DNA from: a virus
UHGV virus genome: UHGV-0170870
Strand: one strand, 5' to 3'
DNA: 63,018 nucleotides
In this document: in pieces, positions 8,813-63,018 of the stretch
Layout: each line of letters opens with the position of its first letter
How positions within the stretch are numbered: position 1 is the first letter of the stretch
Position numbers and translations under genes: made by a program
The notes under the pieces: generated by a model
Told to the model about the DNA's origin: nothing
Databases searched by the model: none
Seen by the model: only the letters and a program-made list of their open reading frames with translations

Positions 8813-8886
8813 CGTCTATCGGCCGTCAGAGAACGGGGCGCTCTGACGGCTGCCATTCCCTCACGCCACCAAAAGGACGGACTACT

Positions 8887-9222
8887 ATGCTCGAAGCCAA
8901 TACCATTCTCGGAAACAACGCCATCATTCTGACCGCGCTGAAGAAGACGCTGTTGGCGGCTGGCGAGCCCCTCTGTGCCGCGCTCGTCGCAGTCGGGGCG
9001 CGGAGCGATACCGAGGTCAAACAGCTCAGTGACGCCAATGTCGAGAGCGACATCGTGAAAGCGATGCTCTTCGACCAGGCATTCATCATCGCCGCCCTGG
9101 CTATGTTCGCCGACAACGAGACCGACAGCACGTTGCTCAGGCTCATCGGGCAGTCGACCAAGGGCATCGCGAACGAGATCGGCAAGTCTGCCAAGACCAC
9201 CGACACCGCCGAAGCCGCGTAA
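8887..9222 (+). CDS. hypothetical protein
   Basis: 111-aa ORF; the overlapping 250-aa minus-strand ORF looks like antisense. Confidence 0.4.
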   Translation: MLEANTILGNNAIILTALKKTLLAAGEPLCAALVAVGARSDTEVKQLSDANVESDIVKAMLFDQAFIIAALAMFADNETDSTLLRLIGQSTKGIANEIGKSAKTTDTAEAA

Positions 9223-9223
9223 C

Positions 9224-9367
9224 ATGGGGATCATCGACTTCCTCGACGCCCACTTCATCGGCCTCAGCGTGGTCTTCTTGACCGCGTGGACGATCACCTG
9301 GGTCGGCCGAACTGTGGTGGCGAGCACCACGACCACGACGATCTCTCGCGTAATCAGCACCAACTGA
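9224..9367 (+). CDS. small hydrophobic protein (47 aa)
   Basis: ATG 2 nt after upstream stop; predicted peptide MGIIDFLDAHFIGLSVVFLTAWTITWVGRTVV...; below ORF-track size cutoff. Confidence 0.25.
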   Translation: MGIIDFLDAHFIGLSVVFLTAWTITWVGRTVVASTTTTTISRVISTN

Positions 9368-9455
9368 TTCAACAACTACCGCACGGGTGATCCCATCTCC
9401 CGTCACCCGTGCGCCCGCGCTGTAACCTCCGTCACCTTACAAGGATCGCATCACC

Positions 9456-9932
9456 ATGAAGAAGCAGAACGCCAAGAAGCAGAAGGTCGACCACGTCGGC
9501 AAGATGCTCAAGGACAAGGCCGACCAGAAGGCGCAGATCGCAGCGCGCGTCGCGCCCGAAGCGCCGAAGAAGAACGAGGTCAAGAAGGTCTATGCGCTCG
9601 GGTCTCCCGGCCATAACCGCAAGGTGCTCGGTGTGACGCTGACCGAAGTCAAGCGCCGCATCAATGAAGAGACGGCCATCGTCAAGGTCGCACTCGACGC
9701 GAACGGTGACCCGACCGGCGAAAGCTCGACCTTCAACTATCGCGACACCGCCGCCTGCACCAAGCGCCGCCGCGAATACACGCGCCGCAACCTGATCGGC
9801 CGCAGCTCGAAGACGGCGAAGCAGCGTCGCAAGAACAACCACGTCTCGGCGGTCGGCACCAGGGGCACCAAGCCGTCGAAGAAGAACAGCGCGAAGGGTG
9901 CCCCCTCCACGTCGGCGAAGAAGGCGGCCTGA
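9456..9932 (+). CDS. hypothetical highly basic Lys-rich protein (possible nucleic-acid binding)
   Basis: 158-aa ORF, K/R-rich N- and C-termini. Confidence 0.45.
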   Translation: MKKQNAKKQKVDHVGKMLKDKADQKAQIAARVAPEAPKKNEVKKVYALGSPGHNRKVLGVTLTEVKRRINEETAIVKVALDANGDPTGESSTFNYRDTAACTKRRREYTRRNLIGRSSKTAKQRRKNNHVSAVGTRGTKPSKKNSAKGAPSTSAKKAA

Positions 9933-9935
9933 TCC

Positions 9936-10202
9936 ATGCGCCAGTACACACGCGAAGTGAGCACCGATCTCGGTGCCAAGATCACCATCCGCATCGAAGC
10001 GGACAACAACCAGGCCGTCGTCCTGAAGGACGATGATCTCGGGTACTCGACCACGCTCGACCCGAAAGCCGCCAACCAGCTCGGGCAACACCTGATCCAA
10101 GCTGCGCGGATCGCCGCCATCAACGTCCTCGATCCTCCGGCACAGCGCACCGTCCGCGACGGCGCTGGCATGTTGGACGTGCGCCTGGGGACCGATCAAT
10201 GA
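9936..10202 (+). CDS. hypothetical protein
   Basis: 88-aa ORF, operon context. Confidence 0.4.
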   Translation: MRQYTREVSTDLGAKITIRIEADNNQAVVLKDDDLGYSTTLDPKAANQLGQHLIQAARIAAINVLDPPAQRTVRDGAGMLDVRLGTDQ

Positions 10203-10618
10203 TGATGATCGACCGCAAGACCTTCGACGCACTCGCGGCGCTGACGGCCCACCCCAAGGCGTTCTTCAGCCTCCAACAGTTGCTCGACCACCTGGCCGCG
10301 CATCCCGACGAGAACCCGCTGGTCTACGCGAACGCGGTCAAGCTGCAACTCGACGTTCAGGCCGCGCTCGAAACGTACCTCGAAGGGCGCAAGCAGCTCG
10401 GCCTGCGCAACGTCATGGAAGGTCTCGTCGTCGGAGCCGGTGCGCTCGCTATGGCGGTCGGCCGGACCACCCAGGACGTGCCCATGCCGGACCAAGACGT
10501 TGCCGCGTCGCTGGCCCACCACTGCGTCACCTGCTTCGGGCAGAACCTTCACGTTTCGTGGAAGGCCCCGCAGTGGTCGACGAGACCCACCCACGAACCT
10601 CCGCACTCCACCAACTGA
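10199..10618 (+). CDS. hypothetical protein
   Basis: 139-aa ORF overlapping upstream stop. Confidence 0.4.
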   Translation: MMMIDRKTFDALAALTAHPKAFFSLQQLLDHLAAHPDENPLVYANAVKLQLDVQAALETYLEGRKQLGLRNVMEGLVVGAGALAMAVGRTTQDVPMPDQDVAASLAHHCVTCFGQNLHVSWKAPQWSTRPTHEPPHSTN

Positions 10619-10627
10619 AAGCATCCC

Positions 10628-11254
10628 ATGTCTCTCCACCCTTCCGATCAATACACCCAAGACCTGAAGACGCGCCGCATGTTCGCCTCGATCACCGAGA
10701 ACATGCAGAACATGGAGAAGCAGGTCGGCGATCTGCTCGCTCTCGCGTCCGGCATGCGCAACACTCTCGGCACCGCCGCGCTGTTGCTCGCGCAGATCGA
10801 AGCGAACTACGTGAACGGTTGCGCCGAACGTCGCAGGGTCGACGCGTTGGCGATGGAGTTGCAGACGCGGCTCGCCGATCTCACCGGCAAGACGGCCGCC
10901 GCGCTCGTTACGGGTTACGCCGAACACAAGTCGTTCAGCGATAGGCTCTCAGGCGTTCAGACACAGGCGGACAGGATCGCGAACGACCGCTTCGTCAAAG
11001 ACGACGAGAAGGGCGGCCCGTTGCCCGGCGTCGAATATGTGGGCCTCGAATGGTTCATGACCAAGCTGTCGATGTCGCGCAAGGTCGTCGAGAACCGGAT
11101 CACCAACGGCGCGCTGCCGGAGCACGATGCGGTCGACGACACCGGCCAGGGCAGGCCGAAGTTCCTGTGGGCGAAGCACAACGCGCTCGCAGCGGTGGCA
11201 AGATATAGAGAGAAGCCGACCAACGAGAGGGGACGGGCGGCGGCTCACGTCTAA
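10628..11254 (+). CDS. hypothetical protein with C-terminal HTH-like segment
   Basis: 208-aa ORF; C-terminal EYVGLEWFMTKLSMSRKVVENRITNGALPE resembles an AlpA/excisionase-type HTH. Confidence 0.45.
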   Translation: MSLHPSDQYTQDLKTRRMFASITENMQNMEKQVGDLLALASGMRNTLGTAALLLAQIEANYVNGCAERRRVDALAMELQTRLADLTGKTAAALVTGYAEHKSFSDRLSGVQTQADRIANDRFVKDDEKGGPLPGVEYVGLEWFMTKLSMSRKVVENRITNGALPEHDAVDDTGQGRPKFLWAKHNALAAVARYREKPTNERGRAAAHV

Positions 11255-11261
11255 GCGGGGC

Positions 11262-11312
11262 TATTTAATTGACAGGCTTGTAAGGCGCGTGAGATGACAT
11301 GCACCTTACGAC
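11262..11312 (+). promoter_or_regulatory. promoter-like element, class 1, with flanking inverted half-sites
   Basis: ATTTAATTGACA-N17-AGATGA; half-sites CTTGTAAGG and CCTTACGA flank the -10 region. Confidence 0.5.
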
Positions 11313-11442
11313 CCCCAATCTAACTGATCGGCCGTATCTAGGAACCAACCCAGATACGGCCGATCTGCCGAAAGGGACCGCTGCCAACGCCAATCAGCAA
11401 TGCGGTCGGCGACTCAATAACATCCGCGTCACGGGAAGGCTA

Positions 11443-13758
11443 ATGGTAAATCAGGACGATGCGCGCCGCGTACAGAACAAGCACAACGCGATGTTGCTCG
11501 CGCGCAACGGCATCCCCGTGTTCCCGTCCAGTGGAAAGGTGCCGCTGGTCAAGCTCTACAATCGCAGAGACACCGAGATAAAACCCGAGGATCGCGAAGC
11601 CGCTATCGAGCAGGCACGCGAGGAAGGGAACAAGCAGCTCACAGTCTTCGTCGGCGCGACGACCGATCCCGACATCGTCAAGCGCATGTGGCGTCACCCG
11701 AACCAAGATGCGGTTCCGTCCGTAGCGTGCGGGCCTGCGCGCCTGGTCGTGATCGACGCCGACACCAAGTTCAACGGTCCCGAGCTGATCGGCAAGCTCT
11801 TCGACGAGCACGGCGGCGTGCCCGAAGGCACGCAGATCATCACGACACAATCGGGTGGCCGCCACTACATCTTCAGCGATCCCGACAACGCCTTCACGAA
11901 TAGCGCTGGCGCGCTCAAGAAGCAGTACGGCTGCGACGTGCGAGGGCGCGGCGGTCAGTTCGTTGCGCCTGGCTCGCTCCGTGAGGACGGCAAGCGCTAC
12001 GGAGACCAGGCCGCGCTCAAGGCGTTCATCGAAGCCTACACCAACGGCACGATCCCGCCGCTCCCTGATTACATCGTCGAGCTGATCGGCACGTCCTCGG
12101 CGGAAGTGGGGGAAGATATCCCCATCTCCAAAGAGCGCGAGATCATCAAGCAGATCGACGAGGCGGACATTCCCGAATGGGAAGAGCTGTGCGCGCCGCT
12201 CGGCGAGTATGACTTCGACAAGCTGCAAGCCGAGAACAGCGAGTTCAAGTCGCTCTACAACGAGCCCGGCGACGACTGCTCCGACAACCGCTTCAAGGCT
12301 GCGCGCCACGTCATGCGCGAGTGGCCGCAGATGCCGCCCGAACACCTGGCGTCGTTCTTCCTGGCCTTCGAGGGTGCTGGCGAGTTCGTCGACAGCAAGC
12401 CGCGCTCCGGCGAATACGACAACCGGCAGACCGCTCGCGAGTGGCTGAAGAACCAGGGTCTCAGCAAGGCGTCGACCGGCGAGGCGTTCGGCGCTGTCGT
12501 CGACGATGACGAAGACTCCGAGTACGAGCGCGAGGTCGCCGCAGAGAAGGAAGCCGAGAAGGCCGCCAAGCCGAAGGGCACGCTGCGCCGCATGTCTGGT
12601 GTCGCGATCTACGCCGATCCGAACTGGATGGTCGAGAATATCTGCACGCGCGGTATGGTCGGCATGCTTCATGCTCCGTCGAATGCCGGTAAGACGTTCA
12701 GTGCATTCCACATGGGCGGCAAGCTCTCCGAAGGGTGGGAGTGGTTCGGCCGCAACGTCGAACAGTGCGGCGTTCTCTACTGCGTCGGCGAAGGCCACGG
12801 CGGCATCAATCGCCGCGCGCTCGCCTGGTCGAACCGCTACAAGCCCAAGCACGATGCGCTCATCTTCCGCGACGGCGTTCCGAACTTCGCGCTCGATCCG
12901 AAGGGCGCGCGTAGGGCGTTGCGCAAGGCCGTCAAGGAAGCGAACGCGATGCTTGAAGGCGAGGGGCTTTCAGTCGGTCTGTTGTTCCTCGACACGTTCG
13001 CGAAGGCCGTAGCGGGTGCCGAGGAAAGCTCGGCGCGCGAGATGCAGCCGATCCTCGATATGCTCCGCGAGCTGGCCGTCGAGTTAGACATCTGCATCAT
13101 CATCGTTCACCACTCCGGCAAGGACACGTCGCTCGGTGCGCGCGGCAGCTCGGCGATCTTCGCCGATGTCGACTTCAACCTTGAGATCGTCAACGCCGAC
13201 CAGGCCAAGAAGAAGCACGGGCTCTCGCTCAAGCATAAGAGCCACTCGGCGATCATCATGCCGAAGATGCGCGACTCGGGGAAGTCAGGCCGCTTCGAGT
13301 TCAAGCTTGAAGAGGTCGAGCTAGGCAAGAACAAGTGGGGCAACCCCGTTACATCAATGGTCGTGGTCGAGGTCGAGGACAAGCCGTCCGAGGGCTCCGC
13401 GTTCGGCGTCGTCGACGAAGAGGCCCCCACAACCAAGGACGAGTTGACGCCCGAAGTGAATCGCTCCGACGACAACAGCCGCTTGAAGCTCTGCGCGAAG
13501 ATCATCAAGGCCGTGCAGAAGATCGGCAAGCTCGTCGGCAAAGAGGTCCACGCCGACGCCGAGATGGTGCGCCTCGAAGTGAAGGCGATGCAGGACATCT
13601 ACGACGAGGCCGGGCCGGACAACTACGCCAGGGCGTTCAAGCGCCGTGTGTTCGGCGGCGACGAGGTCAAGCGCTTCGTGCCCGAGGCGAACGGATCGCT
13701 GCATTACGTGACGCAACGAGGCAAGCCGAGCATGCTTGTGTTCAAACCCCGATCATAG
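11443..13758 (+). CDS. bifunctional primase-polymerase / P-loop replicative helicase (primase-helicase)
   Basis: N-terminal prim-pol features (GIPVFPSSGKVP, VVIDADTK); Walker A HAPSNAGKTFSA and VHHSGK in C-terminal half; start set at ATG 11443 with GGAAGG RBS because the ORF-track start 11299 lies inside the upstream promoter-like element. Confidence 0.8.
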   Translation: MVNQDDARRVQNKHNAMLLARNGIPVFPSSGKVPLVKLYNRRDTEIKPEDREAAIEQAREEGNKQLTVFVGATTDPDIVKRMWRHPNQDAVPSVACGPARLVVIDADTKFNGPELIGKLFDEHGGVPEGTQIITTQSGGRHYIFSDPDNAFTNSAGALKKQYGCDVRGRGGQFVAPGSLREDGKRYGDQAALKAFIEAYTNGTIPPLPDYIVELIGTSSAEVGEDIPISKEREIIKQIDEADIPEWEELCAPLGEYDFDKLQAENSEFKSLYNEPGDDCSDNRFKAARHVMREWPQMPPEHLASFFLAFEGAGEFVDSKPRSGEYDNRQTAREWLKNQGLSKASTGEAFGAVVDDDEDSEYEREVAAEKEAEKAAKPKGTLRRMSGVAIYADPNWMVENICTRGMVGMLHAPSNAGKTFSAFHMGGKLSEGWEWFGRNVEQCGVLYCVGEGHGGINRRALAWSNRYKPKHDALIFRDGVPNFALDPKGARRALRKAVKEANAMLEGEGLSVGLLFLDTFAKAVAGAEESSAREMQPILDMLRELAVELDICIIIVHHSGKDTSLGARGSSAIFADVDFNLEIVNADQAKKKHGLSLKHKSHSAIIMPKMRDSGKSGRFEFKLEEVELGKNKWGNPVTSMVVVEVEDKPSEGSAFGVVDEEAPTTKDELTPEVNRSDDNSRLKLCAKIIKAVQKIGKLVGKEVHADAEMVRLEVKAMQDIYDEAGPDNYARAFKRRVFGGDEVKRFVPEANGSLHYVTQRGKPSMLVFKPRS

Positions 13759-13767
13759 GAGACCACC

Positions 13768-14037
13768 GTGAACGAATATCAACGTCGACTGAAGCAGGAT
13801 ATCGTCAGCCTGCCGCGCAACTCGCTCAACGCCGCGCTCAACGATCCGGTCCTCCGGGTGTTCTGGATATTCTACGCGGTGATCGCGGTCATCGTTCTGA
13901 CTGCGGAGCCCTTGATAGCGTTCTGCACCAAGGACGACAAACGGCCGCCGCCTGAAGTGGTTTGTCCGCCGTATTGGAAGTGCAACGGGCCGCCTGGCAC
14001 TCGCGCGGCGAACTGTGAGTGTTGGGACAAATACTAA
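13768..14037 (+). CDS. hypothetical protein with hydrophobic segment and Cys-rich tail
   Basis: 89-aa ORF followed by intrinsic terminator. Confidence 0.4.
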   Translation: MNEYQRRLKQDIVSLPRNSLNAALNDPVLRVFWIFYAVIAVIVLTAEPLIAFCTKDDKRPPPEVVCPPYWKCNGPPGTRAANCECWDKY

Positions 14038-14043
14038 AACGAT

Positions 14044-14075
14044 AGCCGCCCTTCGGGGCGGCTTTTTCGTATGCG
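14044..14075 (+). terminator. intrinsic terminator
   Basis: AGCCGCCC-TTCG-GGGCGGCT hairpin followed by TTTTTCG. Confidence 0.6.
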
Positions 14076-14127
14076 TCTCGCGATGGTGATATTGAACCCG
14101 TGAGTTGCCCGACGTGTCAAGAGGCGT

Positions 14128-14170
14128 AACCCCTTGACGGGTGTGAGGCGGTAAGGTATGTCATCTGACA
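14128..14170 (+). promoter_or_regulatory. promoter-like element, class 2 (TTGACGG-TGTGAGG...TATGTC)
   Basis: TTGACG-N17-TATGTC; spacer begins GGTGTGAGG as in the 15848 copy. Confidence 0.45.
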
Positions 14171-14196
14171 TTGCCAACCCGAAAGGACAAACGCCA

Positions 14197-14457
14197 ATGA
14201 CGACATGCCGCTTCTGCGAAAAGTGGAAAGGCCCGATGGTTAAATACGGGACGCGCCACTACGCTCACCCCCGCTGCTATTTGGAGAACGGAAAGCGCCT
14301 CGCCGATCTTCACGCGTGGCAGATCGAAGAGTTTCCCGTAAAGGTGCTCTCCGACTTCGGTCATCTCGACATCAAAACCCTGAAGTTCACCGATCCGGAC
14401 ATTCAGGCCAAGATGGACGGCGTCGAAAGCCGCCCCTCCATGATAATCTTCGATTAA
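14197..14457 (+). CDS. hypothetical zinc-ribbon-like protein
   Basis: CRFC...HPRC motifs; start at internal ATG 14197 preceded by GAAAGGACAAACGCCA; ORF track extends to 14158. Confidence 0.4.
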   Translation: MTTCRFCEKWKGPMVKYGTRHYAHPRCYLENGKRLADLHAWQIEEFPVKVLSDFGHLDIKTLKFTDPDIQAKMDGVESRPSMIIFD

Positions 14458-14468
14458 GGGAGACACCA

Positions 14469-14981
14469 ATGAACGCCACCGTCACCGCGCTCCCGAAGCC
14501 CGCCAGACGGCCGAAGGCCGACAAGCCTGCGCCTTCCACCCCTCCCGTCCGCAGCGCCGCCTGGAAGCGCAAGCTCACCCGCCAGCGCTACACGTCCTAT
14601 GGCACCGCAGGCGTCGCCCTGGTGCTGATGGGACTCTCGCTCTCCCATCTTGCGGCCGGGATCGGCGCGCTCACCCACAGCGATCCTGCGCACGCCTGGG
14701 CTATGGCCGTCGGCATCGACCTCGGCTTCATCGCGCTCGAACTCGGCCAGCTCTGCACGACGACCGAATCGCTCCGCAAGGCGATCATGACGTGGGCAGG
14801 CCCCACTATCATCGGCACCCTCATCGTGTCCGCCTGCATGAACGCCTACGCGTTCGCCAGCGTCGCGACCGGCTGGCCGGTGATCGCCTCGGCCTGCATC
14901 TTGGGGCTCTCGATCCCCATGCTCATCTACGTGCTCACGCGGGTCTCCGTGGCCCTGTGGGTCGACGCCACGCGCTCTTGA
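14469..14981 (+). CDS. hypothetical integral membrane protein
   Basis: Start at ATG 14469 with AAGGGAG RBS; several hydrophobic helices; ORF track extends to 14316. Confidence 0.45.
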   Translation: MNATVTALPKPARRPKADKPAPSTPPVRSAAWKRKLTRQRYTSYGTAGVALVLMGLSLSHLAAGIGALTHSDPAHAWAMAVGIDLGFIALELGQLCTTTESLRKAIMTWAGPTIIGTLIVSACMNAYAFASVATGWPVIASACILGLSIPMLIYVLTRVSVALWVDATRS

Positions 14982-14992
14982 GGGAGGACAAC

Positions 14993-15199
14993 ATGGAGAC
15001 CACTGTCTACCTGCGCCGGGAGCCTGGCAGCGAAGGCAACAACGTCGTCGCGTACCGCGATGAGGCCTGCACAGACCGGATCGGTCATTGGATGTGGTGG
15101 CAGGTCCACAAGCCCACCGCCCGAACCACCCACGTCACGCTGAGCGGCAAGCGCCACAAGGTGGCTTGGGCCGAGCGCCTGACCGCCGACAAGGCCTGA
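14993..15199 (+). CDS. hypothetical protein
   Basis: ATG 14993 preceded by AGGGAGGA; 68 aa. Confidence 0.4.
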   Translation: METTVYLRREPGSEGNNVVAYRDEACTDRIGHWMWWQVHKPTARTTHVTLSGKRHKVAWAERLTADKA

Positions 15200-15289: not shown

Positions 15290-15640
15290 ACGACCTTCCG
15301 ATGACCTTCCATTAGACCCTCCAATCCGGAAGGTTTAGTGGAAGGTCGGAAGGTCGTCATTTCGTTTAACGTATTGATAAACAACAAAAAAAGCACTTTG
15401 ACCTTCCGGCCTTCCGGTGGAAGGTTTGGAAGGTTACCGATATCGGAAGGTCAAAATCGGCGCGAGCGGAAGGTTTACAATCGCGGCAACGTATTGATCT
15501 GAAAGCATAATCGGTCGATGACCTTCCGACTTTAAACCTTCCGTACCTTCCGATCTGAAACCTTCAAACCTTCCGACCTTCCGGCCCTTCCCCCTTTAGG
15601 GGGAGGGCGGAGGGTAGGTTTGATGGAGGGTCTGACCGTC
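15290..15640. repeat. Dense array of GGAAGG / CCTTCC hexamer repeats in alternating-orientation blocks; candidate replication origin (iterons) or partition centromere
   Basis: More than 20 copies of GGAAGG(T) or its complement (plus GGAGGG variants) in about 350 bp, separated by AT-rich spacers carrying two copies of AACGTATTGAT. Confidence 0.6.
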
Positions 15641-17181: not shown

Positions 17182-17730
17182 ATGCTTTTCCCGTACCGCA
17201 TGATGGTGGTCGGTCATGGCCGACACGGCAAAGACACTGCCGCTGAAATTCTGCGCGATCACTATGGCGCGACGTTCGTCTCGTCGAGCTGGTTCATGGC
17301 AGAGCGTGTCGTGTTTCCGTACTTCTGCGAGAAGTACCCCGGCAAGTATGCCTCGGCGCAAGAGTGCTACGATGACCGCGCGAACGAGCGCTCGACGTGG
17401 TTCAATCTGATCGCCGAGAGCAATGCGGCCGATCTCACGAAGTTGGGTCGCGCGATCTTCGCGAAGTACGATCTCTACGTCGGCAACAGGAACGCCCGCG
17501 AGTTTCACGCCCTGCGGAACGCCAGCGTGTTCGACATCTCGATTTGGATCGACGCGTGCGAGCGCCTCGAATACCGCGAGCCCCGCACGTCCCTCACAAT
17601 CGAGCCCTGGATGTGCGATTACGTGGTCGACAACAACGGCACCCAGGCCGATCTCAAGCGGAACCTGGCCTCGCTGATGCACGGATTGCGGACCAAGTCC
17701 TTGATCCAAAAGGGATTGTCAGCAGCGTGA
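17182..17730 (+). CDS. P-loop kinase-like protein (possible deoxynucleoside monophosphate kinase)
   Basis: N-terminal VVGHGRHGKDTAAE resembles phage dNMP kinase N-termini. Confidence 0.4.
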   Translation: MLFPYRMMVVGHGRHGKDTAAEILRDHYGATFVSSSWFMAERVVFPYFCEKYPGKYASAQECYDDRANERSTWFNLIAESNAADLTKLGRAIFAKYDLYVGNRNAREFHALRNASVFDISIWIDACERLEYREPRTSLTIEPWMCDYVVDNNGTQADLKRNLASLMHGLRTKSLIQKGLSAA

Positions 17731-17760
17731 CCTGACAAGCCGGCCGAGGGAAGTTTGTGA

Positions 17761-23251: not shown

Positions 23252-23509
23252 TCACGCTACCGGACGGGATTGGTCGGCGGAAACATTGCACGAAACGACG
23301 CGGTAGAAGTCTCGGCTGTAGCGCGGGCGATCATTTCCGCGCACCGAAGAAAAGGCGAGGCGACGATACATTGCGTCGAAAGCTTCGCTAGGGTCGCGTA
23401 GCCAAAGGCGGGCGATCCAATCGCACCCATTGAGCGTGCAACGAAAGCGAATGTCATAGGCCTTGCGACGCGGTGGCGTTGGCATTGGGCGAAAATTCAA
23501 TTCGGTCAT
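23252..23509 (-). CDS. hypothetical protein
   Basis: Start at internal ATG 23509 preceded by GAAAGGACAAACGCCA; first gene of leftward small-gene cassette. Confidence 0.4.
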   Translation of the reverse strand: MTELNFRPMPTPPRRKAYDIRFRCTLNGCDWIARLWLRDPSEAFDAMYRRLAFSSVRGNDRPRYSRDFYRVVSCNVSADQSRPVA

Positions 23510-24018
23510 TGGCGTTTGTCCTTTCGAGCGTGTCGCCCCCGCGTGTGCGGTGGCAGGTGTGTAAGGTAGCACACCTAACGCATACAGCAAGCGTCTAGTT
23601 CGCCCCTAATGCCTGTATTCGTTGGCTTTCTTGCGTGTTGCGCGCTCGCTTAGCGCGCTCCGACATGCCACGCGCGCCAGCGTCGCGCCTTACGAGGCAT
23701 GCAATGCGCGCATGCAAAGCAAGCCGCGTGCCACGCTCCGCGCTATCGCGCTGTAATAGAGCGTGATGAGCAAGAAACACCGCGATATCAGAGACTTGCT
23801 CGCGTTTGTAACAAACCGTGATCTCGGCCGCGCCGACCCACCCCCTGGGGTGTGGGTCCCTGTCGCCACACCCCCTCCCACCGGGGGCAGTCGCCGCCCC
23901 CGAAAGTCGGCAACGTTTTAGCGAATTTGCTCACTCTTGATCGCACGGGTCGCCCCCGCGAGCTATGCGCCTCACGCGTGAGAAACGTCACCTAACACCC
24001 CCTTTGGAGCCCCCGAAC

Positions 24019-49361: not shown

Positions 49362-49412
49362 CCATTTAATTGACGGAACCGATAGGTCTGTGAGATAGCA
49401 GACCTTACAGTC
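49362..49412 (+). promoter_or_regulatory. promoter-like element, class 1
   Basis: ATTTAATTGACG-N17-AGATAG followed by GCAGACCTTACAG; upstream of phosphoesterase gene. Confidence 0.5.
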
Positions 49413-51366: not shown

Positions 51367-51532
51367 TATTTGTTCTACTCCCGCCTAGCTCGGAAACCGT
51401 GTTAGGTTTCGGTCGTGTTTGACACCTAACAGGCCTCCGTAGTATTACGGCCCCTGTGAGAACTTGCATTTCGAGAATAAACAAAGCGCCGCATTTAGGC
51501 GAAGAGACAGGAGACGTATTGTGCGTAGAGGT

Positions 51533-51946
51533 ATGACGGCCGCAGACAAAGAGCGGATAGCGCAGTTCGGCAAGAAGGTCGAACGGCTGATGTTGGGCAA
51601 GGGGTGGAGCGGCGCTGACCTGGCGCGCGAGATGGAGCGGCATGCCCCGAAGGGCGTGACCATCGGCAGGCATATTCCCACGGCCTATATCCGTGGTGAG
51701 AACGAGCCGACCCAACGCAACCTGATGCTGATCGCCAAGGCGCTCGGCGTGAAGCCTGAAGAGCTGATCGCCCCTGCGCCTGGTGAGGGCGGATCGGTCC
51801 CGCAGTTCGCGCAGGCTACCAGCACGCTCGACGGGAAGACGCGCATCGTTGTCGACGCCGAGGTCGACGCCGAGACGGGGTTGCAAATCCTTCAGCTCGT
51901 ACGCAAAGCGCAACAACAGTCGTCGACGAAGCGCTCTGCGTCGTGA
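51533..51946 (+). CDS. XRE-family HTH transcriptional regulator
   Basis: HTH GWSGADLAREMERH...QRNLMLIAKALGV; start at ATG 51533; ORF track starts at 51464. Confidence 0.55.
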   Translation: MTAADKERIAQFGKKVERLMLGKGWSGADLAREMERHAPKGVTIGRHIPTAYIRGENEPTQRNLMLIAKALGVKPEELIAPAPGEGGSVPQFAQATSTLDGKTRIVVDAEVDAETGLQILQLVRKAQQQSSTKRSAS

Positions 51947-53618: not shown

Positions 53619-53798
53619 CTGTCATTCCCCTCGACTCAGCTATATGCCGCTCAGCGGCCGGTAGACGCTCGTCACCTATCATACCTTACAGGCCGAGCAA
53701 AGCGTTTTCTTTGATTTCCGATCCTAAGCCATTGGTGGAATTGTGGTGGGGTCCTCGGGGTCTTTGAGACCAACCCCATTGAAAACATTGAATAAGCT

Positions 53799-53887: not shown

Positions 53888-55018
53888 CTAGAACCTGTCA
53901 GCGGGTCTTTGAACAGTCTTTGACGTAAACGAGCCCGGTTCGTTCCCCTCGACCTTACAAGCTCCTGACGCAAACATGCCAGCGAGCTTCGCCATCGCGC
54001 TCTCCGCCAGGCGCAGATCGCGCCCGAGGTAGTGCCGGTCCAGAATGTGCTCCACGTCCTTCAGGCTGTGGCCGGTGAACGTGGCGATCTCCGGCACTGT
54101 GCATTCGGCGAGCGCCAGGCGCACCACCGCTGAGCCGCGCAGATCGTGGAACGTCAAGTCCTCGTTGATCCCCACGTCGATCAGGGCGTCGCCCCAGGAC
54201 GACCGGAAGCCGTCCTCTGTCCACGGCTTGGCCCGAGAGTTGGTCAGCACCAGCGGCCCGACCCGCTTCATGGAGTCGAGGTAGGTCTTGAGCACGGGGC
54301 TGACAGGGATGGTGACCCGCTTGGCCTTGGCGACCTTGCCGTGGCGTATGGTCTTGCGCTGCGTGAGCCTGATGTAGGTTCCGTCGTAATCCGACCAGCG
54401 CAGGCGGATCAGATCGCCCTCCCGCTGGCCGGTCCAGATCGCGAGCATGAGCGCGTCGACGATCCGCTCCGGGGCTTTCTCGATCATGAGCCCGAGCTGC
54501 GCTTCGGACCATATCTTGTCGAGGCGATCCCCGCCCTCGTAGAGACGGCCGCCGCGCTCGCAGGGATTGACGCTGATGCGTCCGCGATCCTTGGCGACGG
54601 AGAAGATGCGGGCGAGCACGGTCCACGCATAGTCGGCCTTGCGAGGCTTGTCTGCGAACCCATCGCGCCAGGTCTTGAAGACGCCACGCGCGCCCTTCTG
54701 TTCGACGGCCGCAATCGGCATCGTGCCGAACTCTTGCTCGATGAGGGCGATGTAACGGAGGTAGTCTTTCTTCGTCTTGTCGCTGAGCACTCGGTACTCG
54801 GACGACGCTTTGAACTCGACGATGAGCGCGAAGACCGTGGCGTCTGACACGGTCTTCTTGCTCGCTATGTGCTCGTTGAACTCGGTGATGAATGCGGGCG
54901 TGCCGTACTTCGCCTTGATGCGGGGGCCGCCCTTCCACGCGTAGTAGTACCGACGCTTCTTGCCGCCGCCGATCTTGGCGTCGGACCAGAACAGGCCGAA
55001 CAGGTCTACGCGCATCAC
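53888..55018 (-). CDS. int: tyrosine-type site-specific integrase
   Basis: 376 aa; C-terminal catalytic region with HDLRGS and HYLGRD (Tyr); adjacent to tRNA-like att sequence. Confidence 0.85.
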   Translation of the reverse strand: MMRVDLFGLFWSDAKIGGGKKRRYYYAWKGGPRIKAKYGTPAFITEFNEHIASKKTVSDATVFALIVEFKASSEYRVLSDKTKKDYLRYIALIEQEFGTMPIAAVEQKGARGVFKTWRDGFADKPRKADYAWTVLARIFSVAKDRGRISVNPCERGGRLYEGGDRLDKIWSEAQLGLMIEKAPERIVDALMLAIWTGQREGDLIRLRWSDYDGTYIRLTQRKTIRHGKVAKAKRVTIPVSPVLKTYLDSMKRVGPLVLTNSRAKPWTEDGFRSSWGDALIDVGINEDLTFHDLRGSAVVRLALAECTVPEIATFTGHSLKDVEHILDRHYLGRDLRLAESAMAKLAGMFASGACKVEGNEPGSFTSKTVQRPADRF

Positions 55019-55024
55019 GCTCTC

Positions 55025-55285
55025 CTAGCTGACAGCCCTCCGCCTGGAAGCCTGCCAGTCTGCGAGGGGATCGCCCGAGACGGTCTTTTCGGTAGGCAGA
55101 CCGGAAGCCCGGTCCAGATACCAATCAATCGCCTTGCGGTCCCACCGCTGCGTGCCGGGGATCGCCCCCGGCACAATACCCCTCTTGACCCAGGTGTCGA
55201 AGGCGTCGGTGCTGCACCCGCAATAGGCTGCCGCGTGTTCCTTCGTCAGGCCGCGAGGGGCGATCTGGTCGGCGGGTAATATCAC
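55025..55285 (-). CDS. excisionase / AlpA-like HTH DNA-binding protein
   Basis: LTKEHAAAYCGCSTDAFDTWVKRGIVPGAIP...W HTH pattern; likely GTG start at 55285; ORF track extends to 55363. Confidence 0.5.
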   Translation of the reverse strand: MILPADQIAPRGLTKEHAAAYCGCSTDAFDTWVKRGIVPGAIPGTQRWDRKAIDWYLDRASGLPTEKTVSGDPLADWQASRRRAVS

Positions 55286-55290
55286 AGACC

Positions 55291-55596
55291 TTACAGTCTG
55301 TCCACAGGGATCGACGCCACGAACGACTTGGCCCGGCCGTAGAAGTATGCCCGTTGCTTGCACCGTTCGATATGCGAGTCCCGAGAGGGCGACGGCGGTT
55401 CGTTCAGCATATTGTCGACCGCCCTGCCTGCGATGTCCTCGGCGCTCGCCAGCGCGTCGTAGGCGTCGTCGAGAGCCTTCCGGCGCACCGCCACCAGGCG
55501 CAGGCGGCGCTTGGCGTGAAGGTCCCAGGCCACGATGCAGAGCAGGGCGGCCACGCTACCGTAGGTCAGGATGAGAGCCTGATCGTAGAAGTTCAT
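55291..55596 (-). CDS. hypothetical membrane protein
   Basis: Start at ATG 55596 with GGAAAGG RBS; TM helix ALILTYGSVAALLCIVAW; ORF track extends to 55866. Confidence 0.4.
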   Translation of the reverse strand: MNFYDQALILTYGSVAALLCIVAWDLHAKRRLRLVAVRRKALDDAYDALASAEDIAGRAVDNMLNEPPSPSRDSHIERCKQRAYFYGRAKSFVASIPVDRL

Positions 55597-55853: not shown

Positions 55854-55993
55854 TGACCAAACCCAATAAGGTTAGCGACGACGATGAGAATCTTGACCGC
55901 GATCATCAGGCCGCATCCGAGGGAGACACCGCCTACGATGCCAATGGCGGTCCCCTTCAGGATCGCCACGGCGCATTGCTTGAAGCTCCGCAT
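55850..55993 (-). CDS. small hydrophobic membrane protein (47 aa)
   Basis: ATG 55993 overlaps upstream stop (TGATG); MRSFKQCAVAILKGTAIGIVGGVSLGCGLMIAVKILIVVANLIGFGQ. Confidence 0.3.
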   Translation of the reverse strand: MRSFKQCAVAILKGTAIGIVGGVSLGCGLMIAVKILIVVANLIGFGQ

Positions 55994-57837
55994 CAGTCTG
56001 TCTCCACGCGTTTGAAGTAGACGCGGTAGACCGAGAAGCGGGTCTTGACGATCACGTCGCCGTGTTGGTCGAAGAACATCTCTTCGATGCGGCTTGTGGT
56101 GATCGGCTCGCCGTCGATGAAGCGACCCTTGGTGTCGCCGTAGACAGGGCCTTTGACGCAAGGCGCATGCGTCGGATCGCTGGCCGTATCGTTGTAGAAG
56201 ACCGCTTCCTTGATAGTGCCGTGGACCTGCATAGGTTCCTTTCCGAGAGGCTTGCGATTCTCCGCCCACACGAACTTGTTCTCCGTGGGGCTGAGCGACT
56301 TCGAGTTCTGATCGCCAAGCGTCTCGGCGACGAGAGCCCACATGGGGTGATGGTGGGAGCCCGCGCCGAGCCTCCACTGCGTCGTGTTCTGATTGACGAA
56401 CTCGCGGAAGAGGCGCAGCGCGGTTGTCGGGTCGATGGCGGCCATCAGAACTTCTTCCCGTTGGCAGCCAGGCGCGCTTCCGGCTTGTGGTCCGCGCGAT
56501 GCTTGTTGTACTCGCGCTTCCGGCTTGTGGTCCGCGCGATGCTTGTTGTACTCGCGCTTCTCGGCGACAGCGGTCCACAGGTCGTAGCCGTGCTGCTTCG
56601 CGTACCCTTCGATCAACGCGATGGCGTGGATCAGCCGCAACGCGCGATCGCGATTCGACATTGCCCGGTTGACGTTCGTCACCATGCGGCTGATGCGGAG
56701 CAACGCCTGACCCTTGTTGGCCGGGAGATCGTCGACAGGGGTCTTGAAGTTGAACGACGACGAGAGCGGAATGCTACCGAGGATGTCCCCGATGCGAATG
56801 ACAGCGTCGGCCAACTCGACTTCCGCCATCTTCCGCTTCGGCAGATGGTCGTCCATCAAGTTCTTGCGCTCACCTTCCATACACTCCGCCAGCTCGGACA
56901 CGACGAGCATGAGCATCTCGCCCATGTTGCGGTTGAGCTTTTCGCCGGTCGCCGGATCGTGCCACCAGTGCGCGTTGGCCGCATGGACTTCCTGCGCCCA
57001 TGCGTTCAGGCTTGCAGGACGGCCCTGCTCGAAGCGACGAAAGTCCCATCCCCCGCTCTCGCCCTTGTTGTAGTCGTCGTTTTCGAGAACAGCGTATCCG
57101 TTGTGGAAGCCGACGATGTTGTACGTCTTGCCGACCGTTAGACGACGGTTACCCTCGATGCAGCGAGCGGGGCCAAGCTTCAGCGCGCCCTTCTTCCGAT
57201 TCCACACGTCAAGCGCCTTCTCGGCCTGTGCGCGCGTCACGAACATCGACGCCGAGGGCGGAACGTCGCCAGCCGTGAACAGGTCATCGTCCTCGTTGAC
57301 ACGCGGGTCGATGTACGGCGTGCCGATCCACGGACGCTGCTCCTGCATGCGGGGCAGGGCGCGCGACGACGGACGCATCTGTTCGCCGTACAGTTCGCGC
57401 GGCGCGAGCGGCTTGGCGTCTGCGGGCAGAACGTCCTCGTTGAAGGACGCCTCGCGGTCGCGCAGCGCGTTCGCGACCTCGGACGGTTCGAGGCGTTGCG
57501 GCAACTCGGCCAGTTTCTTGCGGGCGAACTCCGCGACGGCCGGGAGGTCTTCCGGCTTCACGTCGGTCAGCCGGTTGGCCTTTCCGTGGACCCTGACGGC
57601 CGTGACAACGTGGAGCCTGTCGGGGTACGCGTCGCGCAGCTTCACCAAGAGCGCCTTGACCTCAGAGTGCGTCAAGGTGGGAGGCGCAGGCGGAGCGCCG
57701 GTCTTCGCAAAGGCGATCAGATCGGCACGGAGCTGCGCCGCCATCGCAGTTTCGATAGCCTCGCGCGTCGCACGATAGCTGCCGCCGAAGTCCTTCGGGA
57801 TGAGAAACAGAACAGTGGGGGTCATGGTAGGTGACAA
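55993..57837 (-). CDS. fusion ORF: unknown N-terminal domain + MazG-like NTP pyrophosphohydrolase-like domain, fused in frame to a downstream 150-aa ORF by a 40-bp tandem duplication
   Basis: MazG-like segment EMLMLVVSELAECMEGER...AEVELADAVIRIGDILG; removing one 40-bp repeat unit restores a stop (…HKPEARLAANGKKF*) overlapping ATG of the MAAIDPTT ORF. Confidence 0.5.
   Translation of the reverse strand: MSPTMTPTVLFLIPKDFGGSYRATREAIETAMAAQLRADLIAFAKTGAPPAPPTLTHSEVKALLVKLRDAYPDRLHVVTAVRVHGKANRLTDVKPEDLPAVAEFARKKLAELPQRLEPSEVANALRDREASFNEDVLPADAKPLAPRELYGEQMRPSSRALPRMQEQRPWIGTPYIDPRVNEDDDLFTAGDVPPSASMFVTRAQAEKALDVWNRKKGALKLGPARCIEGNRRLTVGKTYNIVGFHNGYAVLENDDYNKGESGGWDFRRFEQGRPASLNAWAQEVHAANAHWWHDPATGEKLNRNMGEMLMLVVSELAECMEGERKNLMDDHLPKRKMAEVELADAVIRIGDILGSIPLSSSFNFKTPVDDLPANKGQALLRISRMVTNVNRAMSNRDRALRLIHAIALIEGYAKQHGYDLWTAVAEKREYNKHRADHKPEARVQQASRGPQAGSAPGCQREEVLMAAIDPTTALRLFREFVNQNTTQWRLGAGSHHHPMWALVAETLGDQNSKSLSPTENKFVWAENRKPLGKEPMQVHGTIKEAVFYNDTASDPTHAPCVKGPVYGDTKGRFIDGEPITTSRIEEMFFDQHGDVIVKTRFSVYRVYFKRVETD
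56481..56560. repeat. Perfect 40-bp tandem duplication (2 units) inside coding sequence
   Basis: Units 56481-56520 and 56521-56560 are identical: CGGCTTGTGGTCCGCGCGATGCTTGTTGTACTCGCGCTTC; 40 is not a multiple of 3. Confidence 0.9.
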
Positions 57838-57840
57838 TCC

Positions 57841-58026
57841 TTACAGGCCAGACGCAGAAAGATAGGACCGGAGGGCGATGGTCCCGTGTGATGACGTTCC
57901 GAGGTAGGCGTCGAAGAACCAACCGCGCTCGCGCGCTATCGACACCCACGCCTCTCGAAAGATGTAGTTGAAGCGCATGCGAGCGATTTGCATGGCCCGC
58001 CCTTTGGCCTTGTCTTCAGGTGACAT
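57841..58026 (-). CDS. hypothetical small protein
   Basis: 61-aa ORF with GGAG RBS. Confidence 0.3.
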   Translation of the reverse strand: MSPEDKAKGRAMQIARMRFNYIFREAWVSIARERGWFFDAYLGTSSHGTIALRSYLSASGL

Positions 58027-58228: not shown

Positions 58229-58726
58229 TCACAACGCTCCGGCGAGCGCTTCACGGGCGCGATGGACGCGAGACTTGACCGTCCCCATCGCGACGCCGGT
58301 TATCTCCTGCATCTCCTGATACGTGCAGCCGATCCCTGCGAGCACAACGGCATCCGCCTGCGCGTCGGGGAGATCGAGCAAAGCATCCCACGCCTCGGCC
58401 AGGATCATCGCGCGCTCCGGGTTCTCCGGCGCAACGATATGGTCCGCGTAATCCAGCTCGCCCGTATAGGTCAGCCGTTGCAGGCGCGGGCCACCGCCCT
58501 TCTGCTTGCGGTAGCCCTTGTTGAACCGATCACGGATCAGGTTCTTCAGGATCGTCATCAACCAGCCTTCCAGATTGCGGCCGTCGAAGCGCTTCCGGTT
58601 GGCGAGCGCGTTGACCATCGTCTGCGAGACCAGATCGTCCGCGTCGTCGGCATGGCCGATGTTTTTGAGCGCGTAGTTCTTGAGCAAGCGCCGCGATGCC
58701 CACACGCCCTGTTCGAATTGATCCAT
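58229..58726 (-). CDS. ECF-type sigma-70 family RNA polymerase sigma factor
   Basis: Region 2-like (VSQTMVNALANRKRFDG...WLMTILKNLIRDRF) and region 4 HTH (YQEMQEITGVAMGTVKSRVHRAREAL); start at internal ATG 58726; ORF track extends to 58879. Confidence 0.7.
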   Translation of the reverse strand: MDQFEQGVWASRRLLKNYALKNIGHADDADDLVSQTMVNALANRKRFDGRNLEGWLMTILKNLIRDRFNKGYRKQKGGGPRLQRLTYTGELDYADHIVAPENPERAMILAEAWDALLDLPDAQADAVVLAGIGCTYQEMQEITGVAMGTVKSRVHRAREALAGAL

Positions 58727-58730
58727 GCCG

Positions 58731-61715: not shown

Positions 61716-61760
61716 AGTGGTCGAAATGTAAGCTGACGCACCTTACACGTCAACTAAATT
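61716..61760 (-). promoter_or_regulatory. promoter-like element (TTGACG-N17-TACATT)
   Basis: Minus strand TTTAGTTGACGTGTAAGGTGCGTCAGCTTACATT upstream of methyltransferase-polymerase operon. Confidence 0.4.
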
Positions 61761-62974: not shown

Positions 62975-63018
62975 AGAAAGGTTACCCTCCTAGGTCTCAG
63001 GTCGTCAGGTGACAGACC

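Follow-up and report, generated by a model that had tools for sequence, protein, structure and literature searches.

A dispersed 21-bp dyad in a temperate phage genome, read as the candidate operator of a phage-encoded HTH repressor

The repressor of the Streptomyces phage phiC31 reportedly binds conserved inverted repeat (CIR) operators, as Ingham and colleagues are said to have described in 1994, and the first CIR was reportedly seen at the repressor gene's own promoter. Lambdoid phages concentrate their operators at two or three divergent control regions beside the repressor gene, and C proteins bind as dimers to dyads at their own promoter, where adjacent dyads are read cooperatively. In Cluster A mycobacteriophages, the repressors of L5 (gp71) and Bxb1 (gp69) recognise stoperators, a set of 20-30 genome-wide repressor sites in short intergenic gaps (PMC6550527, PMC9283540). 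Stoperators are asymmetric, 13-14 bp long, bound by a monomeric two-domain repressor and oriented with transcription; most are not promoter-associated and block elongation, and the drift of their consensus accompanies immunity specificity (PMC6550527, PMC9283540).

We analysed a stretch of 63,018 bp of viral DNA, hereafter the window, in which the octamer ACCTWACA recurs. This octamer is one half-site of a 21-bp dyad, TGTAAGGT-N5-ACCTTACA, of which there are about 15-22 sites in the 63-kb genome, and the window also encodes a protein of the XRE/HTH_3 type (referred to here as XRE). By analogy, the closest functional parallel would be the multi-operator repressor regulons of temperate actinophages, with the phiC31 CIRs nearest and the stoperators more loosely related. 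Like the CIRs, the dyads present a palindromic putative operator in many intergenic copies across a temperate phage genome, near predicted early promoters; they differ from them in sequence, host group and repressor family, in being known from sequence alone, and in that the XRE promoter has its half-sites at another spacing than the N5 of the dyads elsewhere. They resemble stoperators in their dispersal, in lying in predicted promoters at some sites and not at others, and in a consensus that drifts between related phages. Unlike stoperators, however, they are symmetric 21-bp dyads without orientation preference (6:5), most of which apparently overlap promoters. Since asymmetry and orientation with transcription, two defining features of stoperators, are both lacking, we do not regard the dyads as members of the stoperator family.

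The lambdoid repressors CI and Cro (lambda, 434, P22 c2) and TP901-1 CI offer a second comparison: they share with our system an XRE-type HTH, the XRE HTH domain being structurally close to lambdoid repressors and TP901-1 CI, and dyads placed over the -35 to -10 region, a placement that is predicted here. Unlike in lambdoid phages, the sites are dispersed over at least 15 transcription units, the putative repressor gene stands alone, and the dyad is longer, at 21 bp with half-site cores 16 bp apart. The C proteins C.AhdI and C.Esp1396I are the closest structural matches to the XRE HTH (rmsd 1.0-1.2 A), but XRE has an extra C-terminal module, and C proteins regulate a single restriction-modification (R-M) operon, a context that is not present in the window.

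The window is the complete, circularly permuted genome of a temperate tailed phage. Another assembly (L005) carries this sequence differently permuted and runs without a break over the window ends, and the contig of a related phage, L001, is colinear across them. A minus-strand replication module spans the ends, encoding a DUF2800 nuclease, an SNF2 helicase, Pol A and an Enc34-type SSB, together with a methyltransferase-like gene, an ECF sigma factor and a tyrosine integrase. Plus-strand genes run from ~7.1 to 52 kb, with prim-pol/helicase, terminase, structural and lysis genes followed by XRE, which forms a stand-alone unit between two terminators and is convergent with the neighbouring operon. 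Relatives likewise encode integrases and are apparently integrated next to tRNA genes; in one case a tRNA gene adjoins the XRE homolog, at an apparent prophage end. An ORF overlapping the window's integrase gene (53955-55124) gave no domain match, and the same is true of many small ORFs in the window. Megablast of two large window segments against INPHARED returned no close relative and only a 260-bp match, to Bradyrhizobium phage BDU-MI-1; the terminase of the nearest characterised phages is only about 35% identical, and the host is probably Bradyrhizobium-like. A literature search with the motif strings and for repressors of Bradyrhizobium temperate phages found no earlier description.

Exact ACCTWACA matches number 11 in the 63,018-bp window as compared to 0.73 expected (sd 0.91, maximum 4, 100 dinucleotide shuffles), and the enrichment proposed by an earlier sequence-only reading of this DNA is therefore real. 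The exact copies lie at 4128, 9434, 23990, 49402, 51424, 53683, 53952, 55288 and 61740 on the plus strand and at 23560 and 51400 on the minus strand. All but two of them, 53683 and 51400, had been listed by that reading, which had also counted three copies that carry one mismatch: 11303 (ACCTTACG), 23573 (ACCTAACG) and 57838 (TCCTTACA). A further near-exact copy, ACCTTACT, is interrupted by the window ends.

The sequence-only reading had also described a strand bias and suggested from it a function tied to the DNA strand. Exact copies do split 9:2 in favour of the plus strand, but this bias is not significant (two-sided binomial p ~0.065) and is lost once one mismatch is allowed, with 24 plus-strand and 25 minus-strand copies over the whole window, or ~16 versus 14-16 by strand when only non-coding DNA is considered. 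Nor is it conserved in related phages: both exact octamers of L132 lie on the opposite strand, those of L136 split 1:1, and in relatives the counterpart of window 53670 has its strong half on the opposite side of the dyad. The GC skew of the window is flat. On the minus-strand arm, the plus-strand octamers at 4128, 53683, 55288 and 61740 are upstream halves co-oriented with genes, and the variants at 3553 and 57838 are likewise upstream halves of gene-co-oriented elements; on the plus-strand arm, plus-strand octamers are downstream halves or third half-sites. Set against the direction of the adjacent gene, the 11 exact octamers divide 6:5, and the two halves of the dyad are equally conserved; we therefore attribute the bias to sampling, either half being the perfect one by chance. 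The frequency of the motif is thus upheld and its strandedness is not, and a strand-tied function is not supported.

What the octamer usually has is a partner: an inverted copy, more degenerate, whose start precedes that of the octamer by exactly 13 bp. When TGTWAGGT-Nx-ACCTWACA was scanned with up to 4 mismatches, 21 sites were found at x = 5, whereas a first-order Markov control gave 1.2 and most other spacings 0-3; a secondary peak, at N14, arises from the third half-site present at some promoters. A PWM dyad scan (threshold of at least 12 bits) likewise gave 22 sites at N5, versus 0-3 at N3, N4, N6, N7 and N8 and 0.9 in Markov controls, although the half-site PWM was trained on 13 of those dyads, so that the comparison between spacings, and not the raw count, constitutes independent evidence. 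Non-coding DNA makes up ~21% of the genome and holds 19 of the 22 PWM dyads. Three were scored as coding: 23977 and 55275, where ORFs are over-extended in our crude gene map, and 15855, which truly lies inside an ORF (15721-15245).

As a consensus, the half-site reads T-G-T-a-A-G-g-T, in which G2 and A5 never vary. When 19 sites are aligned in gene orientation, all 19 keep G2/C20 and A5/T17, the two halves show equal conservation (82% and 80%), and the central GT of the dyad is conserved. The symmetry of the invariant bases, combined with the fixed spacing, suggests that the dyad is bound by a dimeric DNA-binding protein that is itself symmetric. Neither the CtrA box (TTAA-N7-TTAA) nor LexA boxes fit the motif. 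Between the centres of the half-site cores, TGTAA and TTACA, the distance is 16 bp, which is unusual for 434- or P22-type dimers.

The individual sites, with the XRE and integrase genes, are given below in window order; relatives are denoted by contig name and position.

3540-3560, minus strand: dyad TGTAAGGC-gcgtc-ACCTATCA (gene direction), upstream of gene 3000-3515 (minus); begins 4 nt past TTGACC (3565-3570)
4115-4135, minus strand: dyad TGTAAGGT-ctgtg-AGATTACA, upstream of gene 3567-4091 (minus); begins 4 nt past TATTTAATTGACG (-35 at 4140-4145); orthologs in L001 (3753) and L134 (2439)
9421-9441, plus strand: dyad TGTAACCT-ccgtc-ACCTTACA, 22.7 bits, just before the RBS and ATG of gene 9456-9932
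11269-11274, plus strand: TTGACA, a sigma-70-type -35 after the A/T-rich TATTTAA, in the predicted prim-pol/helicase promoter; its context ATTTAATTGAC recurs at 4145 (minus), 49370 (plus) and 61753 (minus)
11279-11299, plus strand: dyad TGTAAGGC-gcgtg-AGATGACA, 19.0 bits, spanning the spacer and a -10-like region
11303-11310, plus strand: third half-site ACCTTACG at the expected transcription start; an equivalent is kept at 49402, L136 5092 and L132 7763
14150-14170, plus strand: dyad GGTAAGGT-atgtc-ATCTGACA, 20.7 bits, upstream of a gene with its ATG at 14197
17717-17737, plus strand: weaker dyad TGTCAGCA-gcgtg-ACCTGACA, 19.2 bits
23560-23580, minus strand: dyad TGTAAGGT-agcac-ACCTAACG, 22.6 bits, the best palindrome of the window, upstream of the leftward gene 23252-23509
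23977-23997, plus strand: half-site ACCTAACA (23990-23997) with a poor partner, 23 nt ahead of the ATG (24030) of the gene that opens the packaging/structural block
35754-35774, plus strand: weaker dyad GGTCAGGT-ctgta-AGCTCACA, 18.0 bits, between structural genes
49370-49409, plus strand: predicted promoter of a gene for a 441-aa metallophosphatase-like protein, with TTGACG, 4 nt, dyad and third half-site
49380-49400, plus strand: dyad CGATAGGT-ctgtg-AGATAGCA; orthologs in L136 (5069/5092), L132 (7763) and L140 (2764)
49402-49409, plus strand: third half-site ACCTTACA, downstream of the 49380 dyad and over the expected start
51400-51431, plus strand: half-sites TGTTAGGT and ACCTAACA in inverted orientation at a distance of 24 bp, which flank or overlap TTGACA (51419-51424) in the promoter-like region of XRE
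51521-51946, plus strand: gene for XRE, an XRE/HTH_3 protein of 141 aa and candidate repressor
53670-53690, minus strand: half-site TGTAAGGT (gene direction) with a poor partner, upstream of the leftward operon 53618-52624; orthologous to full dyads in L132 (12356) and L136 (9287)
53888-55018: tyrosine integrase gene, which supports a temperate lifestyle
53952-53959, plus strand: isolated exact octamer without a partner half, within the 3' end of the integrase gene, possibly non-functional
55275-55295, minus strand: dyad TGTAAGGT-ctgtg-ATATTACC, 3 nt past TGGACA, upstream of the integrase region; in L001 a dyad (14908) lies directly upstream of the integrase
57825-57845, minus strand: dyad TGTAAGGA-ttgtc-ACCTACCA, which fills the 3-nt gap separating two genes, with the stop codon of the upstream gene in its first half and the downstream ATG overlapping the last base of its second half (ACCTACCA|TG)
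61727-61747, minus strand: dyad TGTAAGGT-gcgtc-AGCTTACA, 26.6 bits, upstream of the methyltransferase-PolA-sigma operon; abuts AATTTAGTTGACG (-35 at 61748-61753); orthologs in L001 (8733) and L134 (6873)
63003-63018, minus strand: first 16 nt of dyad CGTCAGGT-gacag-ACC|TTACT, which is split by the window ends, continues at 1-5 and is upstream of the SSB gene; continuous across the ends in L005

Most dyads adjoin the start of a transcription unit, where they overlap predicted promoters. Read in gene direction, these share a layout consisting of an optional A/T-rich tract, TTGACN, ~4 nt, TGTAAGGY-sYGTs-AnnTWACA, a leader, and an RBS with ATG, the leader between dyad and RBS measuring 8-50 nt. 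TTGACN lies exactly 4 nt upstream of the dyads at 3540, 4115, 11279 and 49380, and the same distance is found in relatives (L001 3753, L134 2439, L136 5069 and L140 2764); at 55275 the -35-like element is separated from the dyad by 3 nt, and at 61727 the two are adjacent. Four A/T-flanked TTGAC elements precede a dyad, and all of them appear promoter-like. A dyad that starts 4 bp past TTGACN would cover the promoter spacer and the -10 region. At 11275-11312, inverted half-sites around a -10-like hexamer had been noticed before; this description was essentially right, and it is completed by TTGACA at 11269-11274, followed after 4 nt by the entire dyad at 11279-11299 and then by the third half-site at 11303-11310.

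A strict sigma-70 scan recognised only one of the dyad sites (61753-61725), and none when run over 1-15000, which suggests either that the -10 elements are weak or that the promoter model is wrong. No recognisable -35 element was found at the dyads 9421, 23977 and 57825, and promoter features are absent at 57825, 9421 and 35754, three dyads that could serve as elongation roadblocks. A MerR-type activator binding the spacer was rejected, the implied -35 to -10 spacing being 16-18 bp and not over-long.

The dyads recur in related phages. In L001, whose Pol A is 82% identical at the protein level and whose coding DNA is 72-80% identical to that of the window, they occupy orthologous intergenic positions whilst their flanks have diverged: window 4115 corresponds to L001 3753, 3540 to 4317, 61727 to 8733, 57825 to 12690, and the end-split dyad to 7705. 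L001 comes from the same metagenome as L140, a contig colinear with window 46.2-51.9 kb, and in both the half-site is shifted on both halves, to TGTAAyGT / ACrTTACA; L001 8733 is a perfect palindrome, TGTAACGT-N5-ACGTTACA. Such a shift within one lineage is expected of a phage-specific factor, not of a host factor. The more distant relatives L132, L134 and L136, found via their XRE homologs (54-63% identity), keep TGTAAGGT at equivalent promoters. L136 5069 reproduces the 49380 promoter, third half-site included, L134 2439 reads TTTAATTGACC-N4-TGTAAGGTctgtgATCTACCA, and L132 12356 and L136 9287 both have TGTAAGGTttgtaACCTGACA. The contigs L141 and L142, which carry further XRE variants, show no clear sites. 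Scanning viral contigs with the 14-mer TGTAAGGTCTGTGA returned at least 120 loci, essentially all of them chance matches in AT-rich contigs, and no new relative; a PolA search in metagenome contigs and a sigma search in viral contigs gave no match.

We consider it probable that the dyad is the operator of some phage-encoded transcription factor. On balance, we favour the more specific reading that the dyads are operators for a phage-encoded dimeric HTH repressor, probably XRE (51521-51946), which would silence many promoters; the identity of the binder, its repressive effect and the transcription start positions are what we infer here. No other classical HTH regulator was recognised in the window, and XRE matches both HTH_3 and PHROG 'transcriptional repressor' families. 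Its recognition region, GRHxxxAYxRG, is conserved in homologs 50-82% identical. In its AlphaFold (AF2) model (pLDDT 82), a five-helix HTH is joined by a linker to a C-terminal module made of a beta-hairpin plus helix. Foldseek neighbours of the HTH, on which it superimposes, include the dimeric dyad binders C.AhdI, C.BclI, C.Esp1396I, ImmR, TP901-1 CI, P22 c2, 434 repressor and SinR. All relatives examined have XRE together with the motif, and in most of them there are half-sites by the XRE gene. In the window, L134, L138 and L139, inverted half-sites lie upstream of the XRE gene at variable spacing, 24 bp in the window and ~40 bp in L138 and L139, and do not form the N5 dyad; in the window they are arranged as TGTTAGGT-N16-ACCTAACA around a promoter-like TTGACA-N18-TATTAC. 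At the XRE gene of L136 and L137 no clear half-sites were found.

The L140 lineage allows protein and motif to be compared. Its XRE differs by an insertion of 9 residues ahead of the recognition helix and by ISNY in place of PTAY in the HTH, and its divergence, at 53%, is no greater than that of its neighbours (54-59%). With this single variant lineage, the correlation between XRE variant and motif is suggestive.

The findings fit a CI-type system in several respects, namely a dyad-symmetric site of fixed geometry, an HTH repressor fold that matches dimeric dyad binders, and the temperate lifestyle indicated by the integrase; the bipartite boxes of an ECF promoter and co-variation with the sigma factor, the polarity of Chi or KOPS, and the pairing of a terminator or hairpin were not found. 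In the mechanism that we propose, a CI-like XRE dimer would bind the dyads and, once bound, would occlude RNA polymerase at the promoter, and this occlusion would silence replication, integration and accessory operons in the lysogen. XRE would probably also regulate its own gene through the half-sites at the XRE promoter. The octamer had been considered a possible regulator half-site, and this view has gained from the fixed-spacing dyads at promoter-like regions and from their conservation at orthologous positions; among the regulators then named as candidates, the XRE protein is now the best candidate binder, and the ECF sigma factor is unlikely to recognise the motif.

A different phage regulator, for example an unannotated Cro-like protein, or an activating or dual role, for instance at weak -10 elements that need it, is an alternative that we regard as unlikely yet worth weighing. 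The many small ORFs without a domain match leave room for another protein, and the half-sites at the XRE promoter are atypically spaced. Activation would suit -10 regions that are poor relative to consensus, and the structural neighbours of XRE include C proteins, which both activate and repress. However, XRE is the sole recognised classical HTH regulator and accompanies the motif in all relatives examined, and a dyad centred near -15 occupies a classical repression position.

We find it improbable that the motif is part of the promoters read by the phage ECF sigma factor (58229-58732, minus strand). That an ECF-type sigma is encoded in the window speaks for this, as does the resemblance of TGTAAG and TGTAAC to the AAC-type -35 boxes of some ECF sigmas; moreover, the window sigma differs strongly from that of L001 (19% identity), and between these phages the motif differs slightly as well. 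Yet those two syntenic sigmas belong to different ECF subfamilies, whereas the 21-bp geometry is nearly identical in both phages. A palindrome of fixed spacing with symmetric invariant bases is not the bipartite -35/-10 pair, 16-17 bp apart, that such a sigma would read, and by inspection there is no conserved -10-like box 16-17 nt downstream of TGTAAG. Transcription would also have to begin within the RBS or gene at 57825 and 3540, and sigma-70-type TTGACN elements stand at a fixed 4-nt distance upstream of many sites. Lastly, L134 has the motif and no sigma in the 20 kb seen, with an XRE homolog after Pol A, where the window has the sigma gene. Most likely, the ECF sigma drives another promoter class. 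When TGTAAG was tried as an ECF -35 with a box 16-17 nt downstream, or CGTC as a -10, neither had a consistent partner.

There is also a slim chance that the sites are simply a family of similar promoters for host RNA polymerase, alike through duplication or a shared consensus and without any dedicated regulator. At 4115, 11279, 49380 and 55275, the -35, spacer motif and -10-like segment together form a conserved 40-bp block, and the central GT could represent an extended -10 TG. Spacers are, however, normally free of sequence constraint, and good palindromes occur without a -35 at 23560, 9421, 57825, L001 8733 and L132 12356. Furthermore, both halves changed alike in the L001/L140 lineage, and RNA polymerase contacts leave the symmetric invariant bases unexplained.

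A role as hairpins in RNA or DNA, for instance as terminators, processing sites or structured leaders, seems to us very improbable for the dyads. They are inverted repeats in 5' leaders or between genes, and a compensatory-looking change turns a window G...G into C-G in L001 8733, but on average only 5.6 of the 8 positions in their stems form Watson-Crick pairs, the mean MFE is -2.25 kcal/mol, and at least 7 pairs are possible at only 7 of 27 sites; it is the sequence and not the pairing that is conserved, and no T-tracts follow the dyads. A strand-polar replication, recombination or packaging signal of the Chi or KOPS kind, to which the 9:2 split irrespective of gene orientation might have pointed, is the least probable reading, given the statistics of that split, a palindromic element kept largely to non-coding DNA whereas polar signals spread through coding DNA, the flat GC skew, and relatives that lack the bias and flip the strong half.

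Returning to the repressor reading, it can be extended to a genome-wide silencing network, a speculative picture that as a whole we hold to be doubtful. Here one dimeric XRE would act at ~20 symmetric sites, some being promoter operators and others elongation roadblocks (e.g. 57825); immunity would evolve by a change of half-site position 6 from G to Y together with recognition-helix changes; and non-orthologous ECF sigma cassettes would replace one another at a single locus to serve a separate expression class, all in an alphaproteobacterial-type phage. If true, such a network would be a symmetric-site counterpart of the mycobacteriophage stoperators outside Actinobacteria.

At the level of method, these results illustrate that a palindromic operator can come to notice through its better-conserved half, as an over-represented octamer with a seeming strand bias; a dyad scan of such words should therefore come before any interpretation of their strandedness. 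The window's TGTAAGGT and the TGTAAyGT of L001 and L140 may represent a natural diverged operator/repressor pair, useful for the study of heteroimmunity evolution. Taken together, the dyads would, if confirmed as operators, provide a regulatory map of an uncharacterised temperate phage lineage, comprising its promoters, its repressor regulon and its likely immunity determinant.

Alongside the dyad, the 21-bp palindromic putative operator of many promoters in this phage, the window carries several other repeated elements, and one copy of the dyad is itself divided between the window ends.

Sequence elements of the window
63003-63018 plus 1-5: dyad cut by the window ends, CGTCAGGT-gacag-ACC/TTACT (slash, end of the window), upstream of the SSB gene
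8338-8391: separate repeat cluster, TTGTGAGTCGA then three GACTCACA(A/G), in the gap separating the DUF932 gene from its neighbour
11325-11364: perfect 14-bp inverted repeat, GATCGGCCGTATCT-N12-AGATACGGCCGATC, in the ~130-nt leader of the prim-pol/helicase gene
14181-14199 (+) and 23507-23525 (-): identical 19-nt RBS-plus-start string GAAAGGACAAACGCCAATG, before two small genes
15397-15475: closely packed GGAAGGT / ACCTTCC units forming a palindromic cluster, intergenic, between divergent genes
23524-23579 and 23941-23996: bipartite direct repeat, TCGnnCGnGTCGCCCCCGCG then CACCTAAC 28 nt on

Both small genes sharing the RBS-plus-start string, on opposite strands, have an upstream dyad. Folding of the prim-pol/helicase leader falls far below shuffled controls (z = -3.76), and no T-tract follows its 14-bp inverted repeat. 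In the cluster beside the DUF932 gene, the three GACTCACA(A/G) copies are direct, spaced 9-11 bp apart and inverted relative to TTGTGAGTCGA, an arrangement suggestive of a protein-binding array of a second kind, an iteron or a further operator. The cluster between divergent genes is built from 12-nt arms, TTTGACCTTCCG and CGGAAGGTCAAA, with tandem pairs of TGGAAGGTT and of CCTTCCGG. The two copies of the bipartite repeat share a single 417-bp offset and flank non-coding, structured DNA that lies shortly before the packaging genes; the repeat could be an element related to packaging or a late promoter.

Across the window ends, the sequence is uninterrupted in L005, the same phage in an assembly labelled Streptomyces iakyrus, and the window genome is therefore circular or circularly permuted. 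At window ~56514-56524, inside the MazG-like gene (55993-57837), this contig carries ~41 nt more than the window, which fits a short tandem repeat that varies in copy number, and the alignments of the related phage L001 overlap at the same point.

The 63-kb phage recurs at 99.9-100% identity in assemblies (L005-L009) that bear the labels S. iakyrus, Streptomyces xylophagus and Phycicoccus jejuensis, in each case an NRRL strain. The XRE protein, the candidate dyad-reading repressor, is found at 99-100% identity in ~50 ENA sequences and one record labelled 'Escherichia coli'. Given a GC content of 62%, an XRE homolog in Bradyrhizobium and a short DNA match to a Bradyrhizobium phage, the window appears to come from a phage that infects a Bradyrhizobium-like contaminant, not an actinomycete.

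Regulatory genes differ between relatives at one position, downstream of Pol A, where the window (58229-58732, minus strand) and the closely related L001 (11795-12334) carry non-orthologous ECF-type sigma genes, with 19% identity and different NCBIfam subfamilies, and where another related phage, L134, has an XRE homolog in place of the sigma gene. Regulatory cassettes appear to be exchanged at this locus. Tiny prophage remnants with XRE homologs were also observed directly adjoining tRNA genes or tRNA fragments (contig L130, ~1930-2010; contig L142, both flanks), which look like att sites. Since XRE homologs occur in such remnants, the XRE gene seems to be located at one end of the prophage and to outlast its decay.
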